Shown here: in pieces, positions 5,759-49,982 of the stretch
How the letters are laid out: each line of letters begins with the position of its first letter
Numbering within the stretch: the stretch's first letter is position 1
Source of the DNA: Minisyncoccota bacterium
GTDB taxonomy: Bacteria; Patescibacteriota; Minisyncoccia; Phycocordibacterales; JABAAK01
Direction of reading: 5' to 3'
DNA length: 64,000 bases
NCBI GenBank assembly: GCA_965222235.1
Contig: OZ244939.1
Location: forward strand, 557,942-621,941
Position numbers and translations under genes: made by a program
Notes under the pieces: model-generated
Told to the model about the DNA's origin: nothing
Database searches by the model: none
The model's input: the letters and a program-made list of their open reading frames with translations, nothing else

Positions 5759-5864
5759 GTTTTCAACAGGCATTCTCTGTAAATACCCTGATTCTACTCT
5801 TTATTTTTTTGGTTTTTGGTGTATTTACTTATTGTGCTATTTTTCCTTGTTATATTTATATTAT

Positions 5865-6944: not shown

Positions 6945-6952
6945 AAGGGTAT

Positions 6953-11449: not shown

Positions 11450-11605
11450 TGTTTTCTTCCGGCGTGTATTGAATTCGCACCTGAAGTGCAACAAAAAGAA
11501 AAAACACATACGCCCGCTTGGTACTATGGATATGTTACTAACCATAACCAAACAGGCGTATGTACACTCATAGTACCATTACTAAGCGGATGGCGATAGC
11601 GACAC

Positions 11606-12566: not shown

Positions 12567-13439
12567 GCGACACTGAAAAGAGCGGGGCTCTCACAGACAG
12601 CGATAGCAAGAGAGATAGGGGTACACAGAAGCACGGTATGCAGAGAGTTGCGGAGAAATGGCACGGAAAAGAAAGGGTATCGTCCAATATACGCGGAACG
12701 GAAGGCGAAAGAAAGAAGAAGAGAATCTAAGGAGCCCTACCGGAAGATAGACGGTGATCCTGATCTGCAGCAGAAAATTGAGCGGATGCTGCATCCTCTC
12801 ATCTCCCCTGAAGTAGTGGCACACCTCTGTGGTATACACCACCAGAGAATCTATGACCGGGTAAGAAGAGAGCGACCGGATCTCAAAGACAGGTTGCCGA
12901 GAAAAGGAAGGAAGAAAAGAAAGAAAACAGGAAAGAGGACAGTATGGGTCAGTACAACACGGTCAATACACAACAGACCGGAGACAGACGGGCTCTCCCG
13001 GGAGGGAGACACCCTGGTGGGGCCGACAAAGACAAGAATACTCACCCATGTGGAGAAGAAAAGCTTGTATCTTGATGCCAGAGTCATACGAGACGGTTTG
13101 TCCCACACCGTACATGAGACACTGCAAAAGAGACCGCTGCAGGGACAAATCACCTATGACTGCGGTTCTGAATTCACCCTATGGAAATGGATAGAAGAGG
13201 ATACGGGAGCGACTGTCTACTTTTGTGATCCTCATTCCCCGGGACAGCGGGGCAAGAATGAGAACACTAACGGCAGGCTCAGACGAGTCTACCCCAAGAA
13301 CACTGATCTCAGCACGATAGCACAACAGAATCTCAACAACATTGTCCACCTCATGAACAACACCCCGAGGAAGTCCCTTAACTGGAAAACTCCCGCTCAG
13401 GTGTATACTGCACTTGTTGCATCTCAGTCGAGAATCTAA
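12558..13439 (+). pseudogene. IS30-family transposase, 5' end disrupted by the IS481 insertion (first 5-6 codons lie at 11590-11605 upstream of the insertion)
   Basis: The in-frame translation reads ATLKRAGLSQTAIAREIGVHRSTVCRELRRNGTEKKGYRP... (IS30 HTH), then DDE, then CDPHSPGQRGKNENTNGRLRRVYPKNTDL, the IS30 C-terminal signature. The ORF track lists 12648..13439 (TTG start). Confidence 0.75.
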
Positions 13440-13457
13440 TACTTAGGCTCTTTTTAT

Positions 13458-19091: not shown

Positions 19092-19826
19092 CAGAGATTA
19101 GACTCTCGACTGAGATGCAACAAGTGCAGTATACACCTGAGCGGGAGTTTTCCAGTTAAGGGACTTCCTCGGGGTGTTGTTCATGAGGTGGACAATGTTG
19201 TTGAGATTCTGTTGTGCTATCGTGCTGAGATCAGTGTTCTTGGGGTAGACTCGTCTGAGCCTGCCGTTAGTGTTCTCATTCTTGCCCCGCTGTCCCGGGG
19301 AATGAGGATCACAAAAGTAGACAGTCGCTCCCGTATCCTCTTCTATCCATTTCCATAGGGTGAATTCAGAACCGCAGTCATAGGTGATTTGTCCCTGCAG
19401 CGGTCTCTTTTGCAGTGTCTCATGTACGGTGTGGGACAAACCGTCTCGTATGACTCTGGCATCAAGATACAAGCTTTTCCTCTCCACATGGGTGAGTATT
19501 CTTGTCTTTGTCGGCCCCACCAGTGTGTCTCCCTCCCGGGAGAGCCCGTCTGTCTCCGGTCTGTTGTGTATTGACCGTGTTGTACTGACCCATACTGTCC
19601 TCTTTCCTGTTTTCTTTCTTTTCTTCCTTCCTTTTCTCGGCAACCTGTCTTTGAGATCCGGTCGCTCTCTTCTTACCCGGTCATAGATTCTCTGGTGGTG
19701 TATACCACTTAGTAATGGTACTATGAGTGTACATACGCCTGTTTGGTTATGGTTAGTAACATATCCATAGTACCAAGCGGGCGTATGTGTTTTTTCTTTT
19801 TGTTGCACTTCAGGTGCGAATTCAAT
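19092..19826 (-). mobile_element. IS30-family element copy 2, inverted relative to copy 1 and carrying a ~270-bp internal deletion (removes transposase N-terminal HTH region)
   Basis: Bases 19709-19826 are the reverse complement of 11473-11590 (IS30 left end plus leader), joined directly to transposase sequence from ...GIHHQRIYDRV onward. The right-end IR is at ~19092. The transposase remnant (ORF 19098..19808, 236 aa) is otherwise about 99% identical to copy 1. Confidence 0.75.
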
Positions 19827-20198
19827 TCCGACATTGATAAACTTGATGCCAACGAAAGAGAAGTCGGCGGCATGATCGGAGACAGCGATACGGATGCTCT
19901 CACCTGGACCTACACCTCAGTGGATATCGGCAGATCAACGAACGAAGAAGGACTTATCGGCTATTGGGCACGGGTAAGTGAAAAACCAAATGTGCTGTTC
20001 AGCCATTACGACTCCGGCAAAACCACCTCACAGAGTCTCAGTACCAGCGCGGTAGGGAAAACAATCCGTGAACTGAAGGAAGGTATCCAATCAGCCCTCA
20101 GTCTGGATATGACCACCATCTACAACAGCTGGAGTGCCGACACCTGGGACTTCCGTACAACAAATCAACTCCCGAGACTCAAAACATTGAATTATTAA
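19827..20198 (+). pseudogene. 3' remnant of an unidentified gene truncated by the IS30 copy-2 insertion
   Basis: ORF 19743..20198 starts inside the IS end, so only the part from 19827 is host-derived (SDIDKLDANEREVGG...). No recognisable domain. Confidence 0.25.
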
Positions 20199-20276
20199 AG
20201 ATAGTCATGCACCTCTGAAAATCCGCCCGTGAAAACTCTTTCGGGAGATTCACGGCGGATACACCTCTTTTACCTT

Positions 20277-20588
20277 CAAGCCTTGTTCACAACCTTCTGC
20301 TTGAACTGAAAAAACATTTTGAAAACACCTCGTCCGCTCCGCCCACTCAGTAACTTTAATCCCAATCATACGCTCCAATTGCTCAGTAAACCCTTTCACC
20401 AAAGAATTCGGAGCGTCGCTCGCAAGCATGCGCAAGCTCGCATCGCGCAAATTTTTCCACTTCGCTCATCCGACTGGCGGCTTTGCCACCATCGGTAACG
20501 CCAATCACCATCTCCATTTTCTTCTGCCTTTTTTCCGCGCGGAGCGCGTGAAGGGGGCGGTACTGAATTGAAGAAGAAAATGGGGTGG
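20277..20588. repeat. R-element, left arm of a perfect 312-bp inverted repeat flanking RM cassette 2; preceded by the 19-bp core ctcttttaccttcaagcct (20265-20283)
   Basis: It is 100% identical, as the reverse complement, to 24233-24544. Every 60-nt line was checked by eye. Confidence 0.85.
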
Positions 20589-22065: not shown

Positions 22066-22824
22066 ATGTCAATATGTTTGTTATACTTTACTTATGCAAC
22101 CCAAGGCGTACACTTTGGGTATATGGATAAAATAAACGATACACAGTCTTTTGACTTATTTCTACAGAGTGTCGATCTGAATAAGTATAGGGAGAAGTAC
22201 AAGCCAATCAAATTGGTGGAGATGGATTTGCCGAGAGATATTCAGGTATTGGACCTTATGTACGAGATTTATTGGGACAAGCGAGAGTATGTTGACTTCG
22301 ATGACTTCTACAAGAGTTATGAAAAACGGTACAAGGGTGAGATAGAGTCGTTCAGAGAAAAAATAACAATGTGCCCTAATTGTTTCTATCGGGGATTGCC
22401 TGCGAGAATATACAGAACTTGGGCAAGTATTATTACACAAATACATGCCGGCTATGTTGCTGAGCGGGTATTTGGTGCTGACATGGTGCGTATGTCCACC
22501 GAGCTTGACAGAAAGAGTGCAGATATACAGGTTTCTTATAAAGGACGCACACTGAATTATCAGGTTAAGAAAGTTACAAAGAGTCGGGAGGTGCGCGTAC
22601 AAAAAACTACAAACAAGCAGTTGGAGGGTGAGGCAATAGACATCAAATATTTTGTTCCTACACAGGAAGTTTTTGAAAAACCAAAGAAACTAAATGGTGA
22701 GTACAGAAAGCCATACCGTGATTTTATGGAAAACAAAAACTTAAAGAGGTTGGATAACGGCTTTGTGGTATTTACCCCTCATGTTTTTCGTGAGAAAAAA
22801 GAAGAGATTGATGTTTCTCGTTGA
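22066..22824 (+). CDS. Hypothetical protein, candidate restriction endonuclease of RM cassette 2 (convergent with and overlapping the MTase 3' end)
   Basis: A 252-aa AT-rich ORF. The likely start is MDKIND at ~22126. It has a CPNC pair and acidic/Lys-rich motifs (STELDRKSADIQVSYKGR), but no clean PD-(D/E)xK assignment. Its position and convergent overlap with the MTase are typical of type II R genes. Confidence 0.4.
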   Translation: MSICLLYFTYATQGVHFGYMDKINDTQSFDLFLQSVDLNKYREKYKPIKLVEMDLPRDIQVLDLMYEIYWDKREYVDFDDFYKSYEKRYKGEIESFREKITMCPNCFYRGLPARIYRTWASIITQIHAGYVAERVFGADMVRMSTELDRKSADIQVSYKGRTLNYQVKKVTKSREVRVQKTTNKQLEGEAIDIKYFVPTQEVFEKPKKLNGEYRKPYRDFMENKNLKRLDNGFVVFTPHVFREKKEEIDVSR

Positions 22825-24175
22825 GTTCTTGGTTTTTTAAGAGGCCATCAGCTAGCCGGATGTATTCTTTATTAATTTCCATACCGATAAAATCATGCCC
22901 GAGCTGTTTTGCTGTAAAACACTCTGATCCGGACCCGGCGAACGGGATAAGGACTAACCCCTTTTGTTCAAGGCAGGAATTGATAAGTTTTTCTGTGAGT
23001 AAGGATGGTTTTTGTGTTGGGTGTTTGAGGGTGTTATGCTTTCTGTGTTCTTCCAAATGTTTTGCCACATATGTTTCACCACAAGTTTTACAAAGAAAAT
23101 GCCGTTCTGATCTGCCGGCACCCCCGGCAAGCGCGGGTACTTTGATAACATCTCTTGGTAGGGCACCTTTTTTGTGTGCTTTGTATATTGTTGTGCTTTC
23201 TCCCTTGCTAAATCTGCAGGATTTTGAATTTCTTGTTTTGCCAGCAGAGTTTTTGAGGAATGTTTCTGAGTACGGTTCTCTAACTGCATCTCTGAAGAAT
23301 GTTGGCTTTTTTTCTTTCCATACACATAATATGCTTTCATGACTTCGTTGCCAGAAATTGAGAGAAGCAACATTTTTATTAGTGTAATGCCAGATCAACC
23401 ATCGTTTGTTTACCTGTATGTTTGGTGTGATATGTGCCAGTATTTCACTGAATCCGTAGATAAACATGGTCCCTTCATTTTTAAGGCATCGTAATCCCTC
23501 ATTAACCCATGTGTTGCACCATCCGACATACTCATCAATCTCTCTTTTATCTTTATTATTTCCAAAATCTTTTCCTATGTTGTATGGCGGATCTGCGATG
23601 ATAACATCAACACTTACATTTGGCATCTTTCGCATTTCTATTAATGCATCTCCGTGAATTATGGTATTTTCTTTTGGTATTTCTGTATTCAGTATTCTTT
23701 TTGAAACAAGATTAACACTCTCTTGTTCTTGTGTTTCAATTTTTCCCGTTACTACACCAAGAATGTCAATCTTATTTTTAGGAAATGATAGCAATTCTCC
23801 ATTGTCAGATATTAGCGTAATATTCCTTTTTGTTACATTTTTAATTCTTTTTATGGTGTCTCCTTTTTGTGTTCTTGCAATAATAACATCATCTTGTTTT
23901 GCTTGCGTTGCGTCTTCTACAAGAATAGTTGTACCATTTTTATAGGTATGTCGCATGCTATCGCCACTCACTGTTAGGGAATAATATTTTTTATTTGGTT
24001 TTAATATGTTTTCGGGGATAGTAATTGTTGAGAAGGTGCCACATATCGCTGTGCCGAGTGAGGTTTCGGCATAAACCTTACCGAGGAAAGGTATTTTTAC
24101 ATATTTCATATATATATAGTGTAACTGGAAAATTAGGTCATGTAGAAAAATCCACCATCGTATATGGAAATCCAC
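22772..24175 (-). CDS. Fusion protein: N-terminal LexA/UmuD-like S24 serine autopeptidase domain + C-terminal beta-class DNA methyltransferase
   Basis: Residues ~60-150 read YSLTVSGDSMRHTYKNGTTILVEDATQAKQDDVIIARTQKGDTIKRIKNVTKRNITLISDNGELLSF. This aligns to LexA VRGDSM...VVVARIDDEVTVKRLKKQGNKVELLPEN, with Ser73, Lys109 and a candidate Cys-Gly cleavage site 27 residues upstream. Residues ~170-467 read IIHGDALIEM...VIIADPPYNIG ... IPFAGSGSECF, a DPPY-then-FxGxG MTase. It is a single uninterrupted ORF. The likely start is MKYVK at ~24109. Confidence 0.7.
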   Translation of the reverse strand: MDFHIRWWIFLHDLIFQLHYIYMKYVKIPFLGKVYAETSLGTAICGTFSTITIPENILKPNKKYYSLTVSGDSMRHTYKNGTTILVEDATQAKQDDVIIARTQKGDTIKRIKNVTKRNITLISDNGELLSFPKNKIDILGVVTGKIETQEQESVNLVSKRILNTEIPKENTIIHGDALIEMRKMPNVSVDVIIADPPYNIGKDFGNNKDKREIDEYVGWCNTWVNEGLRCLKNEGTMFIYGFSEILAHITPNIQVNKRWLIWHYTNKNVASLNFWQRSHESILCVWKEKKPTFFRDAVREPYSETFLKNSAGKTRNSKSCRFSKGESTTIYKAHKKGALPRDVIKVPALAGGAGRSERHFLCKTCGETYVAKHLEEHRKHNTLKHPTQKPSLLTEKLINSCLEQKGLVLIPFAGSGSECFTAKQLGHDFIGMEINKEYIRLADGLLKNQELNEKHQSLLFSHEKHEG

Positions 24176-24232: not shown

Positions 24233-24544
24233 CCACCCCATTTTCTTCTTCAATTCAGTACCGCCCCCTTCACGCGCTCCGCGCGGAAAAAAGGCAGAAG
24301 AAAATGGAGATGGTGATTGGCGTTACCGATGGTGGCAAAGCCGCCAGTCGGATGAGCGAAGTGGAAAAATTTGCGCGATGCGAGCTTGCGCATGCTTGCG
24401 AGCGACGCTCCGAATTCTTTGGTGAAAGGGTTTACTGAGCAATTGGAGCGTATGATTGGGATTAAAGTTACTGAGTGGGCGGAGCGGACGAGGTGTTTTC
24501 AAAATGTTTTTTCAGTTCAAGCAGAAGGTTGTGAACAAGGCTTG
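24233..24544. repeat. R-element, right arm of the perfect 312-bp inverted repeat; continues as a diverged extension to ~24650 that duplicates the 3' flank of tRNA-Arg(TCT)
   Basis: It is the reverse complement of 20277-20588. Bases 24540-24650 are the reverse complement of 26190-26300. Confidence 0.85.
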
Positions 24545-24771
24545 ATGGGAAGATGGAGTCCGCTTTCACGGACCTATTGATATGGCGCGCCCTATGGGCG
24601 CGCAAAAAGGGGGAAGAATAAAGGATGTGCCACGCGTTGCGTGGCACACTGATTTTTCAAAAAGATTTTTGTCCGAACGCAGAAATATTTTGTGTTGTAT
24701 ACTAACAGTGCAACCCAAGATAGTATAAGGATTAAAATCGCCTCATCAGACCGGAGTTCTTATGCTTTGGG

Positions 24772-26479
<1,708 letters not shown>

Positions 26480-26484
<5 letters not shown>

Positions 26485-27440
26485 TGGTTCAATACATTTG
26501 CACATGAGTGTACCACATCTATGGGTTTCTTAAGGTCAATGCCGAAATGCGGTCTCTCATGGTTGTAATGATGGAGGTATTGGGCGTATTGTTCTCTGAG
26601 ATCGTCATATTCTTTGAAAGGAGCCTTGTAGTAGATGAACTCCTCCTCATCAGTCCTGAACGATCGTTCAATGACGGCATTCTCGTTAGGACTTGATTTG
26701 TGAATATAGTGGTGTTTTGTACAGAGAGCAGTTACATGGGTATGGAATCTTTTTTGAAATTCAAGACCGTTATCCGTTTGGATGAATACTGTTCTGAAGG
26801 GTAGACGGTTCACTATTTCCGTCATAGCTGAAATGGCATTATTCTGATTCAGATCATTGTATATGACGGCATCCTTGTATCGGGAGTAAATGTCTATGAT
26901 GGCATACTCGAAACAGGTCCAGGGCAATCCTGTCAATTCAGGGGTGAGGTACTTCACATCCATCTGGAGGTAGCCGACGGTTTCAGCGTTCTTTGCGTGC
27001 ATATGTACTGTATTCTGACACAAGGGACGACGATGTCGCTTCTTCTGTCGTATGTAGCCACGGGCTATCAGGAACCGTTTCACCGTACTTACTGATACCG
27101 CTATACCGGTTTCCTCCCTGAGTTTCTCGGCACACCATCCCCGTTTCTGCCTCATTGCCGCAATGACTACTCTTTCCTCCCCGGAGAGTGCCGGTTCCCT
27201 CAGTCTCTTCGGTCTCGTGCTCTTCCGCTGCAGTCCCCGCATGACATACCGCGGTTCCCCGTAGGGATACGGTGACCGTGCCCGTCTCAGCCACCGGGAT
27301 ACCGTGGTTCTGTGGATACCGAGCAGTTCAGCAGTATGCTGTATATCTCTTGTTTCTTTGTATATTTGAATGATTTTCTTGGGATGTTGTCTCATACATC
27401 TGCAGTATCGCTGCTATGTGCAAATGTATTGAACCATTAA
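26480..27440 (-). mobile_element. IS481-family insertion sequence copy 2 (inverted relative to copy 1), 7-bp target duplication gatatac
   Basis: It has the same 25-bp terminal IRs as copy 1. The sequence gatatac at 26473-26479 is repeated at 27441-27447. The element sits ~90 bp from tRNA-Arg. Confidence 0.8.
26481..27395 (-). CDS. IS481-family transposase (identical to 11651..12565)
   Basis: The 304 aa are 100% identical to the copy-1 protein. Confidence 0.85.
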
Positions 27441-27643
27441 GATATACTTGATTTTTATGTGTCTGTACGATAAAATTTCTCTATATGTTCTCTATATGAA
27501 AAAAGTATTTGGTTTTCCTTGGGGTTTAGTATTCTTTTTCTTTTTATCCCTCCTTGTTTTAGTATGGGCATTTATATCTCTTTATTCTAATAACTTGGAA
27601 TACGCTTTCTATTTTTTTTAAAGAGCTTTATATTATTATTCTT

Positions 27644-39008: not shown

Positions 39009-42000
39009 TTGTATACTATCTATATTGTTATGCATAGAAACTGTACCAAAATTTTTATACCAAACGGTGTTCATCGCACTAAAATAAGTGTTCCCTTACT
39101 TTTACTCTTCTCTCTCTTTGTTTTCCTATTGGTGATGCCGGTTTTTGCCGCTGACCCTGACCCCGAAGCTGCTCTGACTGTTGATCTTGTGGCAAGTTCA
39201 GATACCGGTGACAGCGACACCGATGATATAACACAGGATCACACACCCACGATTCTTGTCAGTCGTGGCGGAGGTCTTGAGGCATCGTATACCATTACCG
39301 TCAGCGCGTCAAAAGTAGACGCGACAGATGTTGTTGCGACCAGAGACGGTACGGGTGAGGTGACACTCGGTACCTTGTCGGACGGCATATGGACTATCAG
39401 TGCGCAAGCCGTCGATAGCTCATCATCAACAACGATAACGACAACACAGGAGGATTTGCTTGAGATAACAATTGAGAACTTTTTGACCGTTGATCTTGTG
39501 GCAGGTTCAGATACCGGTGACAGCGACACCGATGATGTAACAGGTGACCACACACCCACAATTCTTGTCAGTAGTTTCACAGATCTTGATGCATCATATG
39601 CCGTTACCGTCACCGCGCGACAGACGGATGCGACAAATGATGCGGAAGATGTTGTTGCGACCAGAGACGGTACGGGTGAGGTGACACTCGGCACCTTGTC
39701 GGACGGCATATGGACTATCAGTGCGCAAGCCGTCGATAGCTCATCAACAACAACGGTAACGACAATACAGGAGGATTTGCTTGAGATAAGAATTACTTCT
39801 GAGAACTTTTTGACTGTTGATCTTGTGGCAGGTTCAGATACCGGTGACAGCGACACCGATGATATAACAAAGGACAATACACCCACGATTCTTGTCAGTA
39901 GTGTCACAGATCTTGACGAATCGTACACCGTTACCGTCACCGCGCGACAGACGGATGCGGCAGATGTTGTTGCAACCAGAGCGGGTCCAGGTGAGGTGAC
40001 ACTCGGCACCTTGTCGGGCGGCGTATGGACTATCAGCGCGGAAGCTGTCAAGAGTGAAGACGTAGGAACGATAACGACGGATTTGGGGGTTGTGAAACCG
40101 GTCGTGAGAAAAACAGTGGTATTGACGCGGGAGTCGCTTGAGATAACAATTATTGATCTGATCATTGATCTTGTGGCAGGTTCAGATACCGGTATCAGCA
40201 GCACCGATGATGCAACCTGCGACGAAACACCCACGATTCGCGTCAGTGGTGCTCCCGGCGCGGGTCTTGACGAATCGTACACCGTTACCGTCACCGCACG
40301 AAGAGGGGGTTTGAAAGATGTTGTTGCAACCAGAGCGGGTCCAGGTGAGGTGACACTCGGCACCTTGGCGAATGATGGCGTATGGACTATCAGCGCAGAA
40401 GCTGTCAAAGGTTCATCAACGTTAATGTCACACCAGCCGCTTGAGATAAGCATTACTCGGTCGTCGCCTTCAGTGGAATTGGAGTGTGGAGTCAAAGAAC
40501 GATTTTCGTTACGACTTAAAGGTAGTTCAGATACCGGTCCTCTTGGTGCTGGCATAACTTCTGATACCACTCCCACATTTGTTGTTGAGGGAGTAGATTC
40601 GTATGCCGTTACCGTCACCGCACAAAAAGCGGGCTTGGAAGATGTTGTTGCAACCAGAGTTGGTAGAGGTGAGGTGACACTCGGTGTCAGTACCATCCTT
40701 TCTGCCCAGACAGCCGGCGACTGGAGTGCACTGGTAAGTAAGTTCACTACAACCACCTCAGATACTCTGACTGAGAGCACGTCAGTCTACACTGCTACAG
40801 ACACTGATGGAGATGGGGAAGCTGACACACTGACTCCGACATTTTCTGGTACGGCTGCCGAGGGTTCTGTTGTGCAGGTTGTCCTTGAGCGGAACGGGTA
40901 CAGTGTTTCAGTGCGTACTACTGCTAACCCGGATGGTACCTATTCTACTGTTGTGCCGCTTGCAGAAGCGACTAGTGTAGTTGGTGAGGGCCTGGAAAAC
41001 GGTGTCTGGTCAGTTACCGCTAAGAGCGTTAATGGCGAGACAACGGTCGCTACCGCGACCATGGAGATAACGATCATCGCTAACCCGGCCATTGCAGTCG
41101 ACCTCAAAAAAGATTCGGACACCGGTATAAGCGCGTATGATAATGTGACATTTGATGTTACACCCACATTTTCCATTATCGGTCTCACGATTCCCACTGA
41201 TACGGTAACTGTTATAGCAACCAACGGTCTGAAATCTGTACTTAAAACAGTGGAGGGTAACAGTGATTTCATCTTTCCTAATTCTTTTAATATCCCTTCC
41301 AACGAAATAGGCGGTGACTGGAAGGTCAAGGTCAGCGGAGCGACCAATGTATTCGACCATACGCTTAATTCAGATAGTGTTTTCACCTATACTGCCCCGG
41401 CAGTCAGTCTTGACCGATACCAAGCCGATCCCACGAACACCCAAGTACCTCTGCCTCCCGCCGAGGAGGGCGATACTGTTCCTCCCGGTCAGCGATATCC
41501 GAAGCCTATGTTTTCTGGCACAGCTCCCGTCAACGCGCCGATAGAGTTTGTCTTTGAGAAAGGAAGGTATTCATTTACCGCTACTGCTGTCGCTGATTCG
41601 GGCTGCCAATACGTCTCCAATGATGCTTACTCAAGGTGTGAATACACCATTGTTGCTCCGCTTAAAAATGCTATTGACTTGCTGTCTGAAGAAAATTTTG
41701 AAGGTATTGTAATACCCAGTACCATTCCTTCTGATCAGACAGGCGGCAACTGGAATGCTGTGGTGAGCGGAGCGACCACGGTCTCCTCGCAGACCCTGAG
41801 CGCTGACAACACGTTTGTTTACACCGCCACGGACGCTGGTAATGACGGGGTAGCCGACGATCTGAATCCGACATTTTCCGGTAGGGCTCCCGTCGGTTCT
41901 TTTGTGCGGTTTATTCTTAAGCGGAACGGGTACAGCGTTTCATTTGGTGATATTGTTGACTATAATGGCAGATATTCTATTGATGCGCCGCTTAAAAATG

Positions 42001-45000
42001 CGAGCAGTGACAGTCGCAGTAGTTTCGGGGCGGGTGTGTGGTCTATTTCCGCGGAGGGTACGGATTCAGCCGGCAACGACCTGTCTGCAGATCTTGATGT
42101 GACCGTTGTATCCGTCACACCTACGCGAATACCGATTAATCTTGATCCCCTTGCTATTGAGCGTCCAAGTGCAGATATAATAACAAGATATGTTACGCCT
42201 GATACTACGCCTGAATTTATCATAACCAACTTTCAGTCTGACACGATGCGTCGGGCGTCAATCGTCGCGAGAAAAAACGGTTCACCAACTGTTTCCAGAA
42301 GTATTAACAGCAACGGAATTTTTACGCTCTCCGATGCCCCTTTGGCGGACGGTGTTTGGTCTGTCGTTTTCCGATACGCTGACAGCAGACTCTTGTCAAA
42401 TAACATAGAAGATAAACTCTTTCTTGAGGTCACTGTTGACACCGGATTAGTGCTGCCAACCTTTAAACTGAAGACAACCTCCGACACAGGCGAAGATGAC
42501 ACCGATGGCCTGACATCTGACACCACGCCCACATTCACCATTGAGGGTATTCCGTCCGAGACTGTTGTTACTGTTACCGCTGAAAATATTGATGACGGGT
42601 CTGATGCCGTCACAAAAAGTATAACAGGCAGCGGCGATGTGACACTTGATTTAGAAGATTATAAAACATATGTCGTCACCGCGCGCACCCTGTTGGGCTG
42701 GAATCAGGAAATTGAGATAGGTATCGACAGCTTTTTCTACGGTCCCAATATTTCTCTTCATGAGTATTCGGACACAGGCGTGAGTAGCACCGACGGGATA
42801 ACGAATGATTCCACGCCGAAAATTACCGTTGCCGGTCTTTTTGCGCCGACAGGGACCGTAACGGTAACCGCGGCCAAAGCCGATTCATCGGGAGAAAATG
42901 TTGTTGCCACGAGAGCCGGCAGCGGTGATGTGACGCTCGGCGTTATTCCTCTCAGTCGGACAGCCGGCGATTGGAATGCCGTAGTGAGCGGAGCGACCAC
43001 GGTCTCCTCGCAGACTCTGAACGCTGACAATACATTTGTTTACACTGCCGCGGACGCTGATAGTGACGGGGAAGCTGACACGCTGATTCCGACATTTTCC
43101 GGTGCGGCTCCCGTTGATTCTATTGTGTGGTTTACCCTTGAGCGGGACGGATACAGTGTTTTGTTCGGTACTGTTGTCCGCGCGGACGGCACCTATTCCG
43201 TTGTCGCGCCGCTTGAAGAGGCGGTTAACGAAGAAAGCCGTTTGTCGGACGGTCTCTGGTTTATCTTCGCGTCAGGTCCTGATTTTTCAGATAACGGTGC
43301 AGTGTTCACCACAGAAACCATCAAAGTGACAGTCGTCACCGAGCCAGCATTGACGCTTGACCTTGATGAGGATTCAGATACGGGCGCGGACAACAGTGAT
43401 CATCTGACATCCGACAACACGCCGACCATTATTCTCAGCGGCTCCATCCCCGATACTACCAATCTAAAATTAACCGCGCGTCAATCGGGATCGCCTGATA
43501 GGATTCTCGGCAGTCCGAGCGGTTCCGAATTCACTGTCGGTGCTGCAAGTTCGATCCTAGAACCCAAAGAGAAGATTGGATCTGTTTTTTGTTCTTTCGA
43601 GTGGAGGGTTAAAACACACGGAGCAATTACGGTATCCTACGGTAGTGGTCCAACCACCCATGAACTTACTCCTGAACAAGGAGGTAAAAGTTCTTTCACC
43701 TACCACCCCGCCTCCGCATGCAGCACCGGTGCTCTTAGTCCTGTGCTGACCGGTACCGCCCTTCCCGGCTCACTCGTTGCCTTTACCTTTACCTATAACG
43801 GGTACAGTATCACATCTGTCACCACCGCCGATGCCAGCGGTAGCTATTCTACTGATTCCATCATTCTTGCAGATGCAGGGAGAAGTTTTGTCAGCCACCA
43901 TCTTTACCAGAGGGTTTCCCATTTAATTGAGCCGCTTACAGACGGTGTGTGGTCTATAACAGCGGAAGCGGAAGCCGATACCGGTACAAATATAGATATA
44001 GCCGGCAATGTAATAACACCGGTAACTATTGATATATCTATTGATACTACGGCACCGACTCTGGTCTCACTCGGGACGCCGGATGTTTCAACCGAGCGAC
44101 AGGTAACACTGTCGCTTGTCGCGACGCACAATCAGCACAGCAGCTACGCGGATCTACCTGAAACACTGCGGCCGATCTTCGGCGGCGACTGTTCAGACTT
44201 TGCAGCAGACACTGACTGGACAGATAGCACGCCGGCGGACGGGGAGGCAAACACATACGGGGTGACTGTTCCCGCGAGAGGTCTTTATGATGCCTGCACA
44301 GTGAAACTTGTTGACGGATTGGGAAATGAGAGCAATACACTCACTTTTGATGCATTCACCGTCAGTCGCGGTGGTGACAGTGGTAGTAGCGGTGGTAGTA
44401 GCGGTGGTAGTAGCGGTGGTAGTAGCGGTGGTAGTAGCGGTGGTAGTAGTGGTGGTAGTAGTAGCGGTGGTAGTGGTGGCAGTGGTAGTGGTGGCAGTGA
44501 TAGCAACAACAGCGCAGCGGGTGACAGTCGTAGAGGCGGCGGTATTCCGTATATCGGGTATTCCGGCAGTCATCGTGACAACTTCTGGGCCCCTTCATTA
44601 GATCTTACGTTTAGTCAACAGGGACTGCACGGGCAATCAGTCACACCCGCACTGCCTGTAATAACGGAGTCGTACCGCAAGCGGCGTATTGAGGAGATCA
44701 AGCTGCTTATTGAGGAAATCAAGTCAAAACTGCAGCAGTATCTCAAAGAGAGTAAATCACCCCTGCCCGCAACACCACCGGCCTTCATCAGAGATCTCGG
44801 TATCGGTTCAACGGGTGAAGATGTACGACGACTGCAAGTTTTTCTCAATCAAAACAATCACCCTCTGGCTGAAGCGGGACATGGTTCTCCGGGAAGTGAG
44901 ACAGCCTACTACGGCATCAGAACACGGGCGGCGAAAGAACGGTATCAAAAGACGCACGGCATACAGCCGACAGTTGAGTACGGTCACTTCGGAGCTGCCA

Positions 45001-45047
45001 GCAGGGCACATGTCAACAATGCTCTGAGCAGACAAGGAGGTAGTTAG
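39009..45047 (+). CDS. Giant (2012 aa) cell-surface adhesin-like protein: signal peptide, many Ig-like repeat domains, Gly/Ser-rich linker, C-terminal peptidoglycan-binding (PG_binding_1-like) domain
   Basis: It carries repeated D-L-V-A-x-S-D-T-G-x-S-x-T-D-x-I-T-x-D-x-T-P-T-I modules, a (GGSS)n run, and a terminal FIRDLGIGSTGEDVRRLQVFLN...YYGIRTRAAKERYQKTHGIQ... matching the PG-binding fold. Confidence 0.75.
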   Translation: MYTIYIVMHRNCTKIFIPNGVHRTKISVPLLLLFSLFVFLLVMPVFAADPDPEAALTVDLVASSDTGDSDTDDITQDHTPTILVSRGGGLEASYTITVSASKVDATDVVATRDGTGEVTLGTLSDGIWTISAQAVDSSSSTTITTTQEDLLEITIENFLTVDLVAGSDTGDSDTDDVTGDHTPTILVSSFTDLDASYAVTVTARQTDATNDAEDVVATRDGTGEVTLGTLSDGIWTISAQAVDSSSTTTVTTIQEDLLEIRITSENFLTVDLVAGSDTGDSDTDDITKDNTPTILVSSVTDLDESYTVTVTARQTDAADVVATRAGPGEVTLGTLSGGVWTISAEAVKSEDVGTITTDLGVVKPVVRKTVVLTRESLEITIIDLIIDLVAGSDTGISSTDDATCDETPTIRVSGAPGAGLDESYTVTVTARRGGLKDVVATRAGPGEVTLGTLANDGVWTISAEAVKGSSTLMSHQPLEISITRSSPSVELECGVKERFSLRLKGSSDTGPLGAGITSDTTPTFVVEGVDSYAVTVTAQKAGLEDVVATRVGRGEVTLGVSTILSAQTAGDWSALVSKFTTTTSDTLTESTSVYTATDTDGDGEADTLTPTFSGTAAEGSVVQVVLERNGYSVSVRTTANPDGTYSTVVPLAEATSVVGEGLENGVWSVTAKSVNGETTVATATMEITIIANPAIAVDLKKDSDTGISAYDNVTFDVTPTFSIIGLTIPTDTVTVIATNGLKSVLKTVEGNSDFIFPNSFNIPSNEIGGDWKVKVSGATNVFDHTLNSDSVFTYTAPAVSLDRYQADPTNTQVPLPPAEEGDTVPPGQRYPKPMFSGTAPVNAPIEFVFEKGRYSFTATAVADSGCQYVSNDAYSRCEYTIVAPLKNAIDLLSEENFEGIVIPSTIPSDQTGGNWNAVVSGATTVSSQTLSADNTFVYTATDAGNDGVADDLNPTFSGRAPVGSFVRFILKRNGYSVSFGDIVDYNGRYSIDAPLKNASSDSRSSFGAGVWSISAEGTDSAGNDLSADLDVTVVSVTPTRIPINLDPLAIERPSADIITRYVTPDTTPEFIITNFQSDTMRRASIVARKNGSPTVSRSINSNGIFTLSDAPLADGVWSVVFRYADSRLLSNNIEDKLFLEVTVDTGLVLPTFKLKTTSDTGEDDTDGLTSDTTPTFTIEGIPSETVVTVTAENIDDGSDAVTKSITGSGDVTLDLEDYKTYVVTARTLLGWNQEIEIGIDSFFYGPNISLHEYSDTGVSSTDGITNDSTPKITVAGLFAPTGTVTVTAAKADSSGENVVATRAGSGDVTLGVIPLSRTAGDWNAVVSGATTVSSQTLNADNTFVYTAADADSDGEADTLIPTFSGAAPVDSIVWFTLERDGYSVLFGTVVRADGTYSVVAPLEEAVNEESRLSDGLWFIFASGPDFSDNGAVFTTETIKVTVVTEPALTLDLDEDSDTGADNSDHLTSDNTPTIILSGSIPDTTNLKLTARQSGSPDRILGSPSGSEFTVGAASSILEPKEKIGSVFCSFEWRVKTHGAITVSYGSGPTTHELTPEQGGKSSFTYHPASACSTGALSPVLTGTALPGSLVAFTFTYNGYSITSVTTADASGSYSTDSIILADAGRSFVSHHLYQRVSHLIEPLTDGVWSITAEAEADTGTNIDIAGNVITPVTIDISIDTTAPTLVSLGTPDVSTERQVTLSLVATHNQHSSYADLPETLRPIFGGDCSDFAADTDWTDSTPADGEANTYGVTVPARGLYDACTVKLVDGLGNESNTLTFDAFTVSRGGDSGSSGGSSGGSSGGSSGGSSGGSSGGSSSGGSGGSGSGGSDSNNSAAGDSRRGGGIPYIGYSGSHRDNFWAPSLDLTFSQQGLHGQSVTPALPVITESYRKRRIEEIKLLIEEIKSKLQQYLKESKSPLPATPPAFIRDLGIGSTGEDVRRLQVFLNQNNHPLAEAGHGSPGSETAYYGIRTRAAKERYQKTHGIQPTVEYGHFGAASRAHVNNALSRQGGS
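39170..40450 (+). repeat. ~330-bp near-identical tandem coding repeats (x4) encoding N-terminal Ig-like modules
   Basis: Blocks such as gttgatcttgtggcaggttcagataccggtgacagcgacaccgatgat... and gatgttgttgcgaccagagacggtacgggtgaggtgacactcgg recur at ~330-bp spacing. Confidence 0.75.
44383..44505 (+). repeat. 12-bp microsatellite (agcggtggtagt)n encoding a (SGGS)n linker
   Basis: The repeat units are directly visible. Confidence 0.85.
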
Positions 45048-45079: not shown

Positions 45080-45400
45080 TCCCACCGAACGGGCTAATCT
45101 TTTCAAAGCTCCACTCCGTTGCGCACCGATCCTCGTGGCACTCCGCTCCCGCGCCAACCGCGGAGAAGGGCGCGAAATATGGAACGGCAGGGAAGGTATT
45201 GCATACGCAAACCCTCCCTGTTTTTTCACTTCTGCTCGGTTCGGCTCCGTTCAGTTCACTTTTCCCACTCCTCCTCTTTTCGCTGCGCTGTCGCTCCGCG
45301 GAAAGTGTCAGAGCCGGAAATGCCTGTGCGAATCTGAAGGCGATACTTGACCCGCACATGCTACACAACACATCCGTTGCGACAGGGAACATTGTGTTTA
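45080..45400. repeat. R-element family copy (degenerate core + body) immediately downstream of the giant adhesin gene
   Basis: Bases 45105-45160 are the reverse complement of 49760-49810. Bases 45215-45300 are similar to 16560-16650. Confidence 0.6.
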
Positions 45401-45475: not shown

Positions 45476-46045
45476 TCATTTTATAAAAACCTTACATTTT
45501 TTTGCCTCGTTCATTAATTTTGTATAAGTAATTGATTCAATGAAATAATGTTTTTTATGATGGTCGTATGTTTTATTATTGATATGAAATTGCCCCTCTC
45601 CAATATTACCCCTATGCTGTTTATCTGAATAATTTATCTTTTCATCTCTTTGTATCTGCTTTTTTTCTATTTCAAATATCTCAATCACATCATTAAAAAA
45701 TAATAAGTATATCATCTTATCAAAGAGTTTTACTTTTATTTGTTGAATGTTACAATCAAATTCAAATTTACCCACATCTTTTTGTTTTATCAGTCTGTTT
45801 CTATTACTATTATTTATTATGATTTCATAAAAATTCTCAATATTCATATCTAACTTCTGTTTTTTAAAAACTTTTGATGCTTTTACCTCAACTTTATTAT
45901 TATTTATATCCACCAAATCAAACTCCAATTTTTTACTTTCTATGCATTTTTTCAGTATCATAACGATAATCTCAGCAGCAGTTCCGAACTGCCTTGTGTG
46001 TATATCAATAATGCCATCCCGAAATTTCTCACTATCCATACCCAA
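45476..46045 (-). CDS. Putative type II restriction endonuclease of RM cassette 3
   Basis: It is co-directional with, and overlaps by 14 nt, the upstream MTase. FDLVDINNNKVEVKASK fits the D...ExK motif of PD-(D/E)xK nucleases. It is very AT-rich. Confidence 0.5.
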   Translation of the reverse strand: MGMDSEKFRDGIIDIHTRQFGTAAEIIVMILKKCIESKKLEFDLVDINNNKVEVKASKVFKKQKLDMNIENFYEIIINNSNRNRLIKQKDVGKFEFDCNIQQIKVKLFDKMIYLLFFNDVIEIFEIEKKQIQRDEKINYSDKQHRGNIGEGQFHINNKTYDHHKKHYFIESITYTKLMNEAKKCKVFIK

Positions 46046-46823
46046 TTTTTCTTATTCGTTTTTCCATTATGTCAAAATACTCTTTTTTGTTCTCAAAACA
46101 GATATATTTTCTATTGCATTGTATTGATGAAACAGCGGTTGTTCCGCTGCCGGCAAAAGGATCTAACACAGCATCACCTTCATTACTGAATACCTGCACT
46201 ATTCTGTCCATCAGCATTAATGGTTTTTGAGTCGGGTGTTTCACTCTCTCTTTTGACCACGGAACAATCGGAGAAACATCGGTCCATACATTAGAGAGTG
46301 CTCTGTATCGGTTACCATTTTTTCTGCCAATTGTCCCGCCGGTTTTTTTGAGAATCGTTGAAGAAATTTTATTGTATGTGTGTGTTTTCTCATCCTTCAC
46401 ATACCACAAAATGTCCTCTCTCGTGGAGACAAGGTTGGTTTTTGCTCCTCGTCCCTTTATCCTGTCGTAAATTATCCAATTTTTTAATGTAAATAGCGCG
46501 CTGATTTCAGTATGGGTCAGCATCACATTAGACCATCCTTGAAACACTATGAGATTACCCGTTGGTTTTAGTATTCTATTGAATTCTTTTGTTAACAGAT
46601 TCCAATTCAAAAAACCTTTCGCATCCCATTCATTTCCTTCAAAATTTATTTCATACGGAGGATCGGTCGCTATCAAGTCAACTGAATTTTCAGGAAGTTT
46701 CGGGAGTAGCTCAATACAATCACCCAAAACAATCTGATTTTCAAGAGATTTTACCGAATCAACTCTATCTGTAAAAACAGATTTTCGGTTTTCTACACCT
46801 GTTAGTAACATGCCTTGCTCCAT
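46032..46823 (-). CDS. DNA methyltransferase, beta-class (DPPY ... FAGSGTT)
   Basis: VDLIATDPPYEINF early, DPFAGSGTTAV late. Confidence 0.85.
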   Translation of the reverse strand: MEQGMLLTGVENRKSVFTDRVDSVKSLENQIVLGDCIELLPKLPENSVDLIATDPPYEINFEGNEWDAKGFLNWNLLTKEFNRILKPTGNLIVFQGWSNVMLTHTEISALFTLKNWIIYDRIKGRGAKTNLVSTREDILWYVKDEKTHTYNKISSTILKKTGGTIGRKNGNRYRALSNVWTDVSPIVPWSKERVKHPTQKPLMLMDRIVQVFSNEGDAVLDPFAGSGTTAVSSIQCNRKYICFENKKEYFDIMEKRIRKIGYG

Positions 46824-46852
46824 CTATAAAATTATACCATGCAGTAGCGTAT

Positions 46853-47112
46853 TAGAAGGCGATAATATCACACCTTGAAGTTTTAATAGAAAAGCAGAGT
46901 GCCAAGTCTCCCGGAAGAAAAGTTTTTGAGGCGATGCTTGATCGCATCGCCGAGGGAGAGGCAGAAGGAATTCTTGCGTGGCATCCGGACAGACTCGCCC
47001 GCAACATGACGGACGGGGCGAAACTGGTTGAATTGATTGAATCAGTCGGCGCGTCTCTTGTCTTTCCCACTTACCATTTTGACAATACGCCTCACGGTAT
47101 CTTCTGCCTCTC
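46853..47112 (+). pseudogene. Internal fragment of a serine recombinase gene (residues ~55-140), truncated upstream by RM cassette 3 and downstream by the R-element core
   Basis: ...SHLEVLIEKQSAKSPGRKVFEAMLDRIAEGEAEGILAWHPDRLARNMTDGAKLVELIE...FPTYHFDNTPHG aligns with LEVLEERQSAKEPGRPVFNRVLSRIYDGEATGILAWHPDRLARNSIDGGQIIHLID...FPTFWFEPTPQG of the 24772 protein. The sequence then runs into ctttttaccttcaagcct. Confidence 0.6.
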
Positions 47113-47384
47113 CCTTTTTACCTTCAAGCCTTGCCAACAGGATAGCACTCAAACTCAAAAAGGACTTTGAAAACACCAATTTGCACGCTCCACCCACCCC
47201 ATAGCCCTAACCCGTCACTTCCGCTCTAGACACTCAGTAAACACGTTGACCAGTCGCGTCGCACCCCTCGGGCCCGTGTTCACTACGTTCACACAATCCC
47301 TCTGGGCGCGCCGCTCCCCGCGCCAATCACCGTCGTCATTTCCTTTTTCTATTTAGTCGCCCCCGCACCCCGCGTGCTCGCCTC
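47110..47384. repeat. R-element family copy (core ctttttaccttcaagcct at ~47115-47132 + diverged body)
   Basis: It aligns at about 65-70% with 20265-20588 in the same orientation. Confidence 0.6.
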
Positions 47385-47448
47385 CATAGTACCAAGCGGG
47401 CGTATGTGTTTTTTCTTTTTGTTGCACTTCAGGTGCGAATTCAATTCT
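47385..47448 (-). mobile_element. Solo ~62-bp fragment of the IS30-family left end
   Basis: ccatagtaccaagcgggcgtatgtgttttttctttttgttgcacttcaggtgcgaattcaattc is the reverse complement of 11469-11533. Confidence 0.65.
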
Positions 47449-47491
47449 GCCCTGATAGATATGTTTATTTTAATGTTAGAATATAAGTACT

Positions 47492-48721
47492 ATGTCAGTT
47501 ACCCAAAAGAGAGTGGAAGTTCAACAAAACCAGCTCTTCAAAGATTCTGATTTTATTTTTAAACCAAAAAATCTTGAAACAGAAGGTGTAAAATATATTG
47601 GATCAAAAAAAGAGATACTTCCGAAAATATTACTCATACTTGAATTATTAAAAAAACAAATTGATATAAATACCGTACTAGACGGTTTTTCTGGCTCAAC
47701 AAGAGTCACACAAGCATTGGCAAAAAATGATTTTAATGTTATATCAAATGATACTGCCATTTACTCAAAAATTTTTGCAGAGTGTTACTTAATGACAAAA
47801 AAAGATATCGGTTATTATGCTAAAAAAATTGATACCTTAAATGATTTAGAAGGAAAAGACGGATGGTTCTCGGCACACTATGGTGGCGCTGAAAATAACG
47901 GTTTATCAGTGGGAGGAGATGGGAAGAAGAAAATGTGGCAGCTACACAATACAAGAAAGCTTGATACGATGCTGGAAGTCATACATGCAGAAAAAGATCA
48001 ACAAGATAAAAGTGTATTACTCACCTCCCTTATGCTAGGTCTCGACAAGGTTGACAGTTCACTTGGTCATCAGGTTTCATACCTTAAAGAATGGGCAAGT
48101 CGGTCATATAATACATTAAAGTTATCTGTACCTCACTATTGGGTTAACAATGGAAAACATGACATACATAATAAGGACATATTCAAATTGATTGAAGAAA
48201 TTACTGTTGATGTCGCATACTATGATCCGCCGTATTGTTCAAACAATGAAAAGATGCCCGCTTCCCGTGTTCGGTATAATTCTTATTACCATATATGGAC
48301 ATCTGTCTGTCTGAATGACACTCCGGAAGTTTTTGGTGTCTGTAATCGAAGAAAAGATACCAGTGATAAGACCGCAATATCGGTATTTGAAGAATTCAGA
48401 AGAGATTTGGAAACAAATGAATATATCACCACACTGCAAATAAAGAAGTTAATTGAAAGGACAAAAGCGAAATGTATTATATTTTCATATTCAAGTAGCG
48501 GTCGTACTGATAAAAAAAGTTTCAAAAAAATATTAAATGAATTGGATTTAAATTTTTTATTTTATGAATTTGATTATAAAAAGAATATTATGCATGCATT
48601 AAAGTCAACCAATGAATGGATAAATGAACAAGGGAATAGGGAGTATTTAATTATGATAGACAAACAAGGGGGTGTTGATTTTGAAGAAATTGAAAGAAAT
48701 CTAACATCCGTATTTCTGTAA
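47492..48721 (+). CDS. Dam-like (alpha-class, D12 family) N6-adenine DNA methyltransferase with ~120-aa C-terminal extension
   Basis: KYIGSKKEILPKIL, LDGFSGSTRVTQAL (FxGxG-like) and DVAYYDPPYC. Confidence 0.8.
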   Translation: MSVTQKRVEVQQNQLFKDSDFIFKPKNLETEGVKYIGSKKEILPKILLILELLKKQIDINTVLDGFSGSTRVTQALAKNDFNVISNDTAIYSKIFAECYLMTKKDIGYYAKKIDTLNDLEGKDGWFSAHYGGAENNGLSVGGDGKKKMWQLHNTRKLDTMLEVIHAEKDQQDKSVLLTSLMLGLDKVDSSLGHQVSYLKEWASRSYNTLKLSVPHYWVNNGKHDIHNKDIFKLIEEITVDVAYYDPPYCSNNEKMPASRVRYNSYYHIWTSVCLNDTPEVFGVCNRRKDTSDKTAISVFEEFRRDLETNEYITTLQIKKLIERTKAKCIIFSYSSSGRTDKKSFKKILNELDLNFLFYEFDYKKNIMHALKSTNEWINEQGNREYLIMIDKQGGVDFEEIERNLTSVFL

Positions 48722-49474
48722 AAATTTTTTCAACTCCGATTTGTCCAAAAGAGAAAGCTCTTTTACTGAAAGTAAGAATTCTTGATTGATTGTGTAGGTG
48801 CCTTTGAAGAACACATCAAGGATATTTTTTGCGTGATGTGTTTTTGTCCAAATTCCCCGCTGTAAGGCATTTGCCGTTGTTCCTCCATATCTAACTTCAA
48901 ACATATAATTTTCCTTAGAATCTAAAAACTCATATATTGGGTGTTTTCTTCTACCTTCCACACCAATCTTTCTTATTGATTTCCATTTCTTTATCATCAT
49001 TTTGGTGTTGATGGTGCAAACTCTAAATGTGCTTTCTTTCTCATTGTATAAGAAACACAAAACATGTATGTTTAATAATTTGTTTAGTATCGGCAAAACA
49101 TCTTCTCGTTTAATCTGTTTCTTTTTTGCAGAAAGTTTTAACAAAGTGTCAAATAATTCATTTTTCTTATCCGTTCGTATTTGCAGTGGTCCATTGTCAC
49201 CGTAATTTTTAAGAGACAGAAAAAATTTCTTACCAGTTTTCTTTTCCTGTATCTCAAGATCCTCTTCGCTCTCTTTTGCTCGGAATTTTTCTTTCCCTAT
49301 GTGTGTTGACTTGAAATGTTTTAAATACTTATTTATGTAATGATCAAACAAGACCTCAGCCATATCACCGTGTGTTTTGTTTCCAAATTCTCTAAAGGAG
49401 AATATGTTGTCAAAAAATATAACACTTTTAGGGTTTCTCCTAAAGTTTTCTTTTAATTCTGCAAAAAAATCCAT
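48701..49474 (-). CDS. DpnII/MboI-family restriction endonuclease (GATC-type), convergent with the Dam-like MTase
   Basis: FGNKTHGDMAEVLFDHYINKYL compares with DpnII NGRKNRTGDAMENIVQSYLE. KENYMFEVRYGG compares with DpnII EQVLYLIEVNFYSG. The ORF track extends to 49810 through a repeat, and the real start is MDFFAELK at 49474. Confidence 0.65.
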   Translation of the reverse strand: MDFFAELKENFRRNPKSVIFFDNIFSFREFGNKTHGDMAEVLFDHYINKYLKHFKSTHIGKEKFRAKESEEDLEIQEKKTGKKFFLSLKNYGDNGPLQIRTDKKNELFDTLLKLSAKKKQIKREDVLPILNKLLNIHVLCFLYNEKESTFRVCTINTKMMIKKWKSIRKIGVEGRRKHPIYEFLDSKENYMFEVRYGGTTANALQRGIWTKTHHAKNILDVFFKGTYTINQEFLLSVKELSLLDKSELKKFLQKYGC

Positions 49475-49639
49475 AAAATTGAACTTTATTAATTGAATTG
49501 TAGCATTTATATTGACGCGAATCAAAGGAAATCCGCCGTTTCCCGTAAACGTTCGCAAGCGGGAAATCGGTAGATTGCATGAGTTCTCCCGACCCATCAC
49601 ACCGACATTTTCTTTTACTGTCTGATTTGCGTGCTCTTG

Positions 49640-49910
49640 TGCTACTAAATGAAGAACCCCAAAAACCCGCCTTTTAAGCAAAGAGAACAGAAACAGACGG
49701 TGGCGAGCACGCGGGGTTGGGGCGGCGGAAAAATTGAAGAAGAAAATAACGACGATGATTGGCGCGGGAGCAGAGCACCACGAGGATCGGTGCGTAACGG
49801 AGTGGAGCACGGATCCGAGAGGTGCGGAGCGACTTGTTGAAGCGTACGATGTTGGTTTGAGGGTTTACTGGGTGCTCGGAGCGGGCGAATCTTCCTCTTT
49901 TACCTTCAAG
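49640..49910. repeat. R-element family copy ending in the 19-bp core ctcttttaccttcaagcct that overlaps the 3' end of tRNA-Arg
   Basis: Its body is homologous to 24250-24480. The core lies at ~49895-49913, and its last 3 nt are the tRNA 3' terminus. Confidence 0.65.
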
Positions 49911-49982
49911 CCTCCCCAGCAGGAATCGAACCTGCATTACAAGCTCCGCAAGCCTGCGTTCTATCCATTAAACTATGGGGAG
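49911..49982 (-). tRNA. tRNA-Arg (anticodon read as GCG; assignment of anticodon less certain)
   Basis: The minus-strand cloverleaf reads ctcccca-ta-gttt-aatggata-gaac-g-caggc-ttGCGga-gcttg-taat-gcagg-ttcgatt-cctgc-tggggag-g. It has two G-U pairs and a 4-nt variable loop. Confidence 0.65.

Follow-up and report, generated by a model that had tools for sequence, protein, structure and literature searches.

NhoI and Eco15I are modification-dependent nucleases that need methylated cytosines and use a QxK active site, and among canonical Type II enzymes PvuII stands nearest to them (PMC11347163). A nuclease with a similar predicted fold is encoded by one of the two neighboring restriction-modification (RM) cassettes that we describe here, and its methylase partner can be compared with M.RsrI, CcrM and M.MboIIA. 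The methylase of the other cassette has the motif order of Dam and DpnM (M.DpnII), in which an S-adenosylmethionine (AdoMet) motif is followed by a target-recognition region and then by DPPY. Both cassettes lie in a 64,000-nucleotide (nt) stretch of a Minisyncoccota bacterium genome (GenBank assembly GCA_965222235.1, contig OZ244939.1, positions 557,942 to 621,941 of the forward strand), which we refer to as the window. Cassette 3 pairs a beta-class methylase of 263 amino acids (aa) with a 187-aa predicted nuclease, and cassette 4 pairs a 409-aa alpha (D12)-class methylase with a 257-aa predicted Type II restriction endonuclease. These are probably two ordinary and independent Type II RM systems, both intact, which were acquired by horizontal transfer and now sit in a hotspot scarred by mobile elements beside a tRNA-Arg gene. 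An earlier note on this DNA had proposed two back-to-back RM systems, one of them a DpnII/Dam-type system for GATC. All four of the open reading frames (ORFs) that it named are present, and motifs, gene pairing, folds and flanking repeats bear out the two systems. The GATC identity did not survive a search for the DpnII family model PF04556 or an alignment with Dam, as described below.

The two genes of cassette 3 run in the same direction and overlap. The methylase gene (46032–46823, reverse strand) comes first, and the nuclease gene (45476–46045, reverse strand) begins 8–14 nt ahead of the methylase stop codon. The nuclease is 187 aa long from the ATG at 46039, which is the start used by gene callers; a start at the TTG of 46045 would give 189 aa. 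The methylase matched PF01555 at E = 7e-42 (144 bits; cut-off 26.7) and a PADLOC MTase_II model at 1e-55. Its DPPY motif (residues 54–57) precedes the AdoMet motif FAGSG (223–227), which is the permuted order of the beta class, so the class named in the earlier note holds. The best match in the PDB was M.RsrI (4e-26), and the protein could be aligned over its full length with the structures of M.RsrI, CcrM, DpnA and M.MboIIA. It shares DPPY and the permuted motif order with M.RsrI, CcrM and M.MboIIA, but it scored far under the NCBIfam equivalog cut-offs, and therefore no specificity can be transferred to it. By an established rule for these families, DPPY rather than SPPY points to methylation of adenine at N6, and the motif suggests N6-methyladenine (m6A) as the predicted product of this enzyme.

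The 187-aa protein had no match in Pfam, NCBIfam, PADLOC, PHROGs or the PDB, whether it was searched as a single sequence or as a profile. A search found 290 homologs, and another gave 505 representatives at 50% identity. In an alignment of 44 sequences, E23, D41, E51-x-K53, F-D-C-N-I-Q-Q and Q-H-x-x-N-x-G-E-G-Q-F-H were invariant. An AlphaFold2 (AF2) model with a mean predicted local distance difference test score (pLDDT) of 93.4 placed E23 in a helix (15–30) and E51-V-K53 in a strand (49–56). An acidic residue on a helix followed by D...(D/E)xK on consecutive strands is the pattern of the PD-(D/E)XK superfamily, in agreement with the overlapping PD-ExK candidate that had been picked out in this reading frame. 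The top PDB folds for the model were NhoI, the N-terminal domain of Eco15I, and PvuII, with E-values of 3.5e-4 to 1e-2, probabilities up to 1.00 and template modeling (TM) scores of 0.46–0.55. Because PvuII is the nearest canonical Type II enzyme to the other two (PMC11347163), the three matches represent one lineage.

Like these three enzymes, the 187-aa protein is small and single-domained (about 150–190 aa) and has a core of one helix and three strands carrying E...D...ExK. The resemblance is one of fold: a search of the PDB with the family profile came back empty, and no kinship with PvuII or the BisI family was detected at the sequence level. The active site of the 187-aa protein is ExK, whereas that of NhoI and Eco15I (BisI family) is QxK. 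Those two enzymes depend on methylated cytosines, but the cassette 3 nuclease is partnered by a predicted m6A methylase. The partner of PvuII itself is an N4-cytosine methylase. The cassette 3 nuclease belongs to a PvuII-like family that is probably uncharacterized and that Pfam, NCBIfam and PADLOC do not model.

The genomic surroundings of this family mostly link it to RM. In closer relatives (51–68% identical, tblastn) the nuclease gene follows that of a PF01555 methylase and either abuts it or overlaps with it; the overlap between the called genes is 4 nt in one relative (L003) and 8 nt in another (L004). Gene context was then counted in 80 metagenome loci of the family. A PF01555-type methylase adjoined the nuclease gene in 33 of them, mostly in convergent orientation, and in another 17 the neighbor was a gamma-class methylase (NPPW motif) some 659 aa long. 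In 12 of the 80 the gene lay in phage-like replication modules, between primase and DNA polymerase I genes, with no methylase. Most loci outside these main classes were short contigs. The family is thus RM-linked mostly, not exclusively, and it looks as though phage replication modules carry a separate version of it. Pfam scans of longer relatives found no fused domains. The phage-type relatives are 38–40% identical to the window protein (L105, L108, L114, L115, L117, L125, L141, L147, L162 and others).

We picture cassette 3 as an operon with overlapping genes, in which the beta-class methylase would protect its site by predicted m6A and the PvuII-like PD-(D/E)XK nuclease would cut the same site when it is unmethylated, probably as a homodimer.

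The genes of cassette 4 are convergent and have 21 nt in common. The methylase gene occupies 47492–48721 on the forward strand and the endonuclease gene 48701–49474 on the reverse strand. For the latter we used the start supported by its family, which lies inside a longer ORF extending to 49810. The 409-aa methylase matched the D12 (alpha) class model PF02086 at E = 3e-17 (63.6 bits, above the gathering cut-off of 22). Motif I comes before motif IV in this protein, with FSGST (66–70) preceding DPPY (245–248), which is the alpha-class order. Both cassette methylases thus carry DPPY and an AdoMet-binding motif. The predicted product is again m6A. The protein also matched the PADLOC MTase_II model PDLC03342 at E = 6e-110, with residues 28–392 aligned to model positions 20–382 of 383.

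The earlier note had described this methylase as unusually long, with a C-terminal extension of about 120 aa. There are more than 3,600 homologs, and the best 120 are 382–417 aa long, save one 287-aa fragment, so that 409 aa is within the family norm of about 390–410 aa. The tail had looked like an extension because the PF02086 alignment, which starts at profile position 1, ends at position 192 of 253. In an alignment of 34 homologs, conservation reaches the C-terminal end. The invariant positions that run through residues 256–386 include N-R-R-x-D, S-x-F-E, S-Y-x-x-x-G-R, D-Y-K-K-N-x-M and N-x-E-Y-L, and the PADLOC model is aligned end to end. Compared with the family consensus, the window protein is about 27 aa longer at its N-terminus, a feature common to its closest relatives, and shorter at its C-terminus.

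Its description as Dam-like fared no better. Neither phmmer nor the family profile met a Dam, DpnM or T4 Dam chain in the PDB. When the family was compared with E. coli Dam by hhalign, 25 columns around DPPY were aligned at a probability of 17%. No similarity to Dam or DpnM was detected outside the DPPY region, and full-length similarity that includes the target-recognition region was not found. The 409-aa protein is a distant member of the D12 class whose likeness to Dam is limited to the DPPY region, which leaves GATC specificity unsupported.

The 257-aa protein matched the PADLOC REase_II model PDLC03568 at E = 4.7e-47 over residues 19–241, and it had no match in Pfam or NCBIfam. Searches of the PDB by sequence and by profile gave nothing informative for this protein, as for the 409-aa methylase and the 187-aa nuclease. 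It had previously been called a convergent restriction endonuclease of the DpnII family. Convergence and the enzyme type stand, but the family does not, since PF04556 (DpnII/MboI) gave no match at E ≤ 0.05–0.1 for any of 45 family members including the 257-aa protein. By its profile match the protein belongs to a recognized Type II endonuclease family (PDLC03568) and not to DpnII/MboI. It has more than 670 homologs, all unnamed. The family has 42 invariant positions, including G-N-K-T-H-G-D37-x-x-E40, E70-E71-D72, S87-x-K89, E193-x-R-Y-G and A-N-A-L-Q-R-G-x-W. In the AF2 model (pLDDT 91.1), D37 and E40 are in a helix, D72 heads a strand, and S87-x-K89 is in the next long strand, a placement that in the predicted structure corresponds to the PD-(D/E)XK arrangement. 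The best PDB folds were R.SwaI and R.HinP1I, followed at lower rank by DpnI, HincII and an archaeal Holliday junction resolvase, all with weak E-values. For both nuclease models it was the top of the fold list alone that consisted of restriction enzymes.

The active site of this nuclease may consist of D72...S87-x-K89 together with the neighboring invariant residues E70 and E71. This motif may resemble the serine-substituted PD...SxK of NgoMIV and Cfr10I. The invariant D72...S87-x-K89 with E70, E71 and E193 is in keeping with those two enzymes, but the best folds are SwaI and HinP1I instead.

The pairing of the two cassette 4 genes is strongly conserved. A genome scan for the 257-aa family found 540 loci, from which 80 were retrieved across many phyla. 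A methylase of the 409-aa type abuts the nuclease gene in 79 of the 80, and the contig of the remaining one stops 115 bp past the match. The usual order is nuclease then methylase on one strand (77/80), whereas the pair in the window is convergent and overlapping, as it also is in a Kaiserbacteria relative and in one other locus (L046). Both window proteins match their PADLOC models nearly end to end. Cassette 4 therefore has what is expected of a Type II RM system, namely a methylase with AdoMet and catalytic motifs that is linked to a homolog of a recognized endonuclease, and by its profile matches it is a further member of a Type II family that PADLOC already models (PDLC03342 plus PDLC03568). 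We propose that its divergent alpha/D12 methylase would modify the site by predicted m6A, and that the 257-aa PD-(D/E)XK nuclease would cut the unmodified site, presumably as a homodimer.

Both cassettes contrast in composition with the DNA around them. The guanine-cytosine (GC) content is 0.326 in cassette 3 and 0.322 in cassette 4, against 0.495 in the remaining window, so the strong AT-richness reported earlier is a genuine contrast and marks both as foreign. Identical proteins occur in run ERR13605531 and on a contig of 641,294 bp, and the nearest named relatives are from Candidatus Kaiserbacteria. Cassette 4 (1,936 bp, window 47544–49479) recurs at 76.7% nt identity in a Kaiserbacteria genome, as an AT-rich island that has tRNA-Tyr on one side and a tRNA-Leu cluster on the other; the flanks are not syntenic, and cassette 4 has been transferred as a 1.9-kb unit. 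Among 66 other genomes, 56 have the cassette 4 module at a GC content more than 3 points below that of the flanking DNA. A relative of cassette 3 in a 2.5-Mb genome lies between leuD and mraZ and has a GC content of 0.34 against 0.44–0.46. Both cassettes behave as small mobile units. A tblastn search of both nucleases against annotated plasmids and phages gave no match, and a literature search on Kaiserbacteria, sponges and RM found nothing. We considered an 18-nt direct repeat on either side of cassette 3 (45328–45345 and 46847–46864, 83%) as a target duplication and dropped it, because several such pairs are estimated to occur by chance in 5.5 kb.

The DNA between and beside the cassettes holds the debris of mobile elements, and the recombinase fragment, R-element and solo end of an IS30-family insertion sequence (IS) that had been noted between them were all recovered. 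The serine recombinase fragment (46934–47110, to 47170 at its widest, forward strand) matched PF00239 at E = 1.5e-7 over profile positions 55–116 of 145, and what is left is the central part of the catalytic domain. It is followed by a 32-nt att-like copy (47111–47142, forward strand) of the tRNA-Arg 3' end and its downstream flank, which is 84–86% identical to 49890–49924, with the 32 nt themselves set against 49893–49924. The latter segment overlaps the tRNA-Arg (GCG) gene itself (49910–49982, reverse strand; found by ARAGORN and by Rfam RF00005 at 62 bits), which forms the right boundary of the island. The solo IS30-family end (47383–47447, forward strand, 65 bp) is 100% identical to 19764–19828 and, inverted, to 11468–11530. 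These two copies of 63–65 bp adjoin IS30 transposase genes, identified by NF033563 at E = 4e-46 (157.9 bits; cut-off 80).

Three copies of the R-element were recognized. R1 is a partial copy (45108–45157, forward strand) in the left flank of cassette 3 and is 92% complementary to 49759–49808. R2 (47116–47385, forward strand) is composite in its matches: 47249–47385 is 76% identical to 49837–49699, and 47116–47252 is 68% identical to 20268–20401, an arm of the inverted repeats around a TaqI-like RM cassette (cassette 2) elsewhere in the window. R3 (49699–49924, reverse strand) lies directly 3' of the tRNA-Arg gene. A search of Rfam with the R-element returned only the tRNA. The inverted repeats that bracket cassette 2 are 319 nt long (20270–20588 and 24233–24551) and 99% identical to each other. 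They are diverged relatives (68–80%) of the R-element copies at 47116–47385 and 49699–49924, which bracket cassette 4 and are likewise inverted. The repeat family starts with the sequence just 3' of the tRNA-Arg genes at 49910–49982 and 26315–26389, and the ORF of an intact large serine recombinase (24772–26484) extends into tRNA-Arg(TCT). These arrangements suggest that the RM cassettes share a carrier, or a hotspot of integration, linked to tRNA-Arg.

Counting cassettes 3 and 4, the window has four RM systems within 45 kb, as the earlier note had counted. One of the others lies at 5757–8140 and begins with a CcrM/HinfI-like methylase (5757–6944, forward strand; NF050803 at E = 1e-171, with PF01555 and RAMA). 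GANTC, the site assigned to CcrM/HinfI-like methylases, is the probable motif of this system. The adjacent 395-aa protein (6953–8140, forward strand) has an N-terminal REase_II domain (PDLC03487, E = 3.9e-37, residues 2–212), and residues 270–390 at its C-terminal end form a LexA-like Peptidase_S24 domain (PF00717, E = 7e-15). It is unusual for a restriction enzyme to be joined to an autoproteolytic S24 domain. The other system, cassette 2 at 22066–24175, consists of a TaqI-family endonuclease (22066–22824, forward strand; PF09573, E = 1e-35) that is convergent with a 467-aa methylase (22772–24175, reverse strand). In this methylase, PF01555 (residues 189–442) is preceded by a Peptidase_S24 domain (49–142, E = 1e-16), which makes two S24 fusions to RM components within 20 kb.

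We examined motif avoidance as the Markov observed/expected ratio (O/E) of palindromic 4-, 5- and 6-mers across the 60 kb of host DNA that remain when the two islands are set aside. Strong depletion was limited to TCGA (0.28), ACGT (0.31; 47 observed against 150 expected), CTAG (0.29) and GGCC (0.43). TCGA is the recognition site of TaqI, and its depletion can be ascribed to the TaqI-family enzyme in the window; it fits with that system being active or long resident. Avoidance of ACGT and GGCC could not be linked to any system in the window. CTAG is low in many bacteria. Host GATC, which the earlier note had singled out for a depletion check, was mildly under-represented (O/E 0.82, 213 sites in the 60 kb), well short of the strong depletion seen for TCGA, ACGT and GGCC. 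We also pooled O/E over the 80 cassette 4 family loci and the 80 cassette 3 nuclease family loci, which gave 0.56 against 0.80 for ATGCAT, 0.73 against 0.39 for ATTAAT, and 0.64 against 0.33 for CTCGAG. These values reflect a general avoidance of palindromes, with differences that are too weak and are confounded by taxonomy, and we dropped them as a guide to specificity.

How far do these data bear on other explanations? That cassette 4 is a DpnII/Dam-type GATC system whose methylase has gained a C-terminal domain of about 120 aa is very improbable. The D12 (Dam) Pfam model does match the methylase and leaves a long C-terminal region unaligned, and host GATC is slightly low. Yet the DpnII model is missing from the nuclease and all 45 relatives searched, the methylase profile meets no Dam-type chain, and the hhalign match to E. 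coli Dam is confined to the catalytic motif. The C-terminal 150 residues are conserved family-wide and fall within the 383-position PADLOC model, the surplus length of the window protein is at its N-terminus, and more than two hundred GATC sites persist in the host DNA. It is also unlikely, if less so, that the 187-aa protein is a stand-alone nuclease of a phage, repair or modification-dependent type and that the beta-class methylase is effectively an orphan. The phage-like loci without a methylase speak for this, as do best folds that are modification-dependent enzymes and the want of a matching restriction endonuclease model in PADLOC, Pfam or NCBIfam. The overlap with the methylase gene, the methylase-then-nuclease order kept by closer relatives, and an adjoining DNA methylase of one of two classes in at least 50 of the 80 loci all argue the other way. 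So does the ExK active site in place of the BisI-family QxK, and if a modification-dependent nuclease shared a transcript with a methylase, the host itself would be in danger of being killed.

Decay is the remaining alternative, and a shade more doubtful than an orphan methylase: one or both cassettes would be decaying remnants that no longer work, stranded between broken IS and recombinase sequences. The cassettes are indeed flanked by an incomplete recombinase gene, the solo IS30 end and repeat copies that have diverged, and no depletion of host motifs can be ascribed to cassette 3 or 4. The four ORFs, however, are full length for their families and have kept all invariant family residues. 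Because every one of these residues is intact in the window copies, we presume from the sequences that both cassettes are functional today. We therefore favor two ordinary, intact and independent Type II systems, both acquired horizontally, against which several of the observations above still weigh. The neighboring recombinase fragment and solo IS end leave room for lost expression signals, and among 4- to 6-mer palindromes the host shows no depletion attributable to either cassette. The fold-search E-values were modest for both nucleases (3.5e-4 and 1.8e-3, with TM scores of 0.31–0.55). For the 187-aa family there is no Pfam, NCBIfam or PADLOC model, and part of the family is found in phage-like replication modules where there is no methylase.

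Other features of the window were noted in passing. Just left of cassette 3 ends a 2,012-aa ORF (39009–45047, forward strand) that contains numerous repeats, each about 105 aa long, and a Gly/Ser-rich run (12-nt tandem repeats at 44356–44522); it probably encodes a giant surface protein. Between about 5 kb and 28 kb the window is dense in mobile elements and AT-rich islands. An IS30-family element there (11468–13440; transposase 12648–13439, NF033563) is apparently interrupted by an IS481-like element (11605–12567; transposase 11651–12565, whose best match, NF033577, is under its cut-off). A second IS481-like copy, 100% identical and inverted, lies at 26479–27441, and a further IS30-family stretch at 19097–19826.

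Beyond annotation the significance of these results is small, and nothing in them should surprise a specialist; the single claim of the earlier note that would have been out of the ordinary is wrong. For annotation, the GATC/DpnII label should not be used for cassette 4, and its methylase should not be credited with a novel domain. Somewhat short of an even chance, in our estimate, is the more far-reaching idea that the 187-aa protein represents a never-characterized family of Type II endonucleases, minimal PvuII-like PD-(D/E)XK enzymes that at least two methylase classes have recruited and that phages also carry without a methylase, and, as a separate matter, that the tRNA-Arg-linked inverted repeats around cassettes 2 and 4 could mark an undescribed vehicle for RM cassettes. 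If the first is true, the nuclease family, which lies outside the Pfam, NCBIfam and PADLOC models, may be a source of new restriction specificities. For the organism, the picture is one of a small genome, probably of the candidate phyla radiation, in which several imported Type II RM systems have piled up at a hotspot linked to tRNA genes, in agreement with the known mobility of RM systems.

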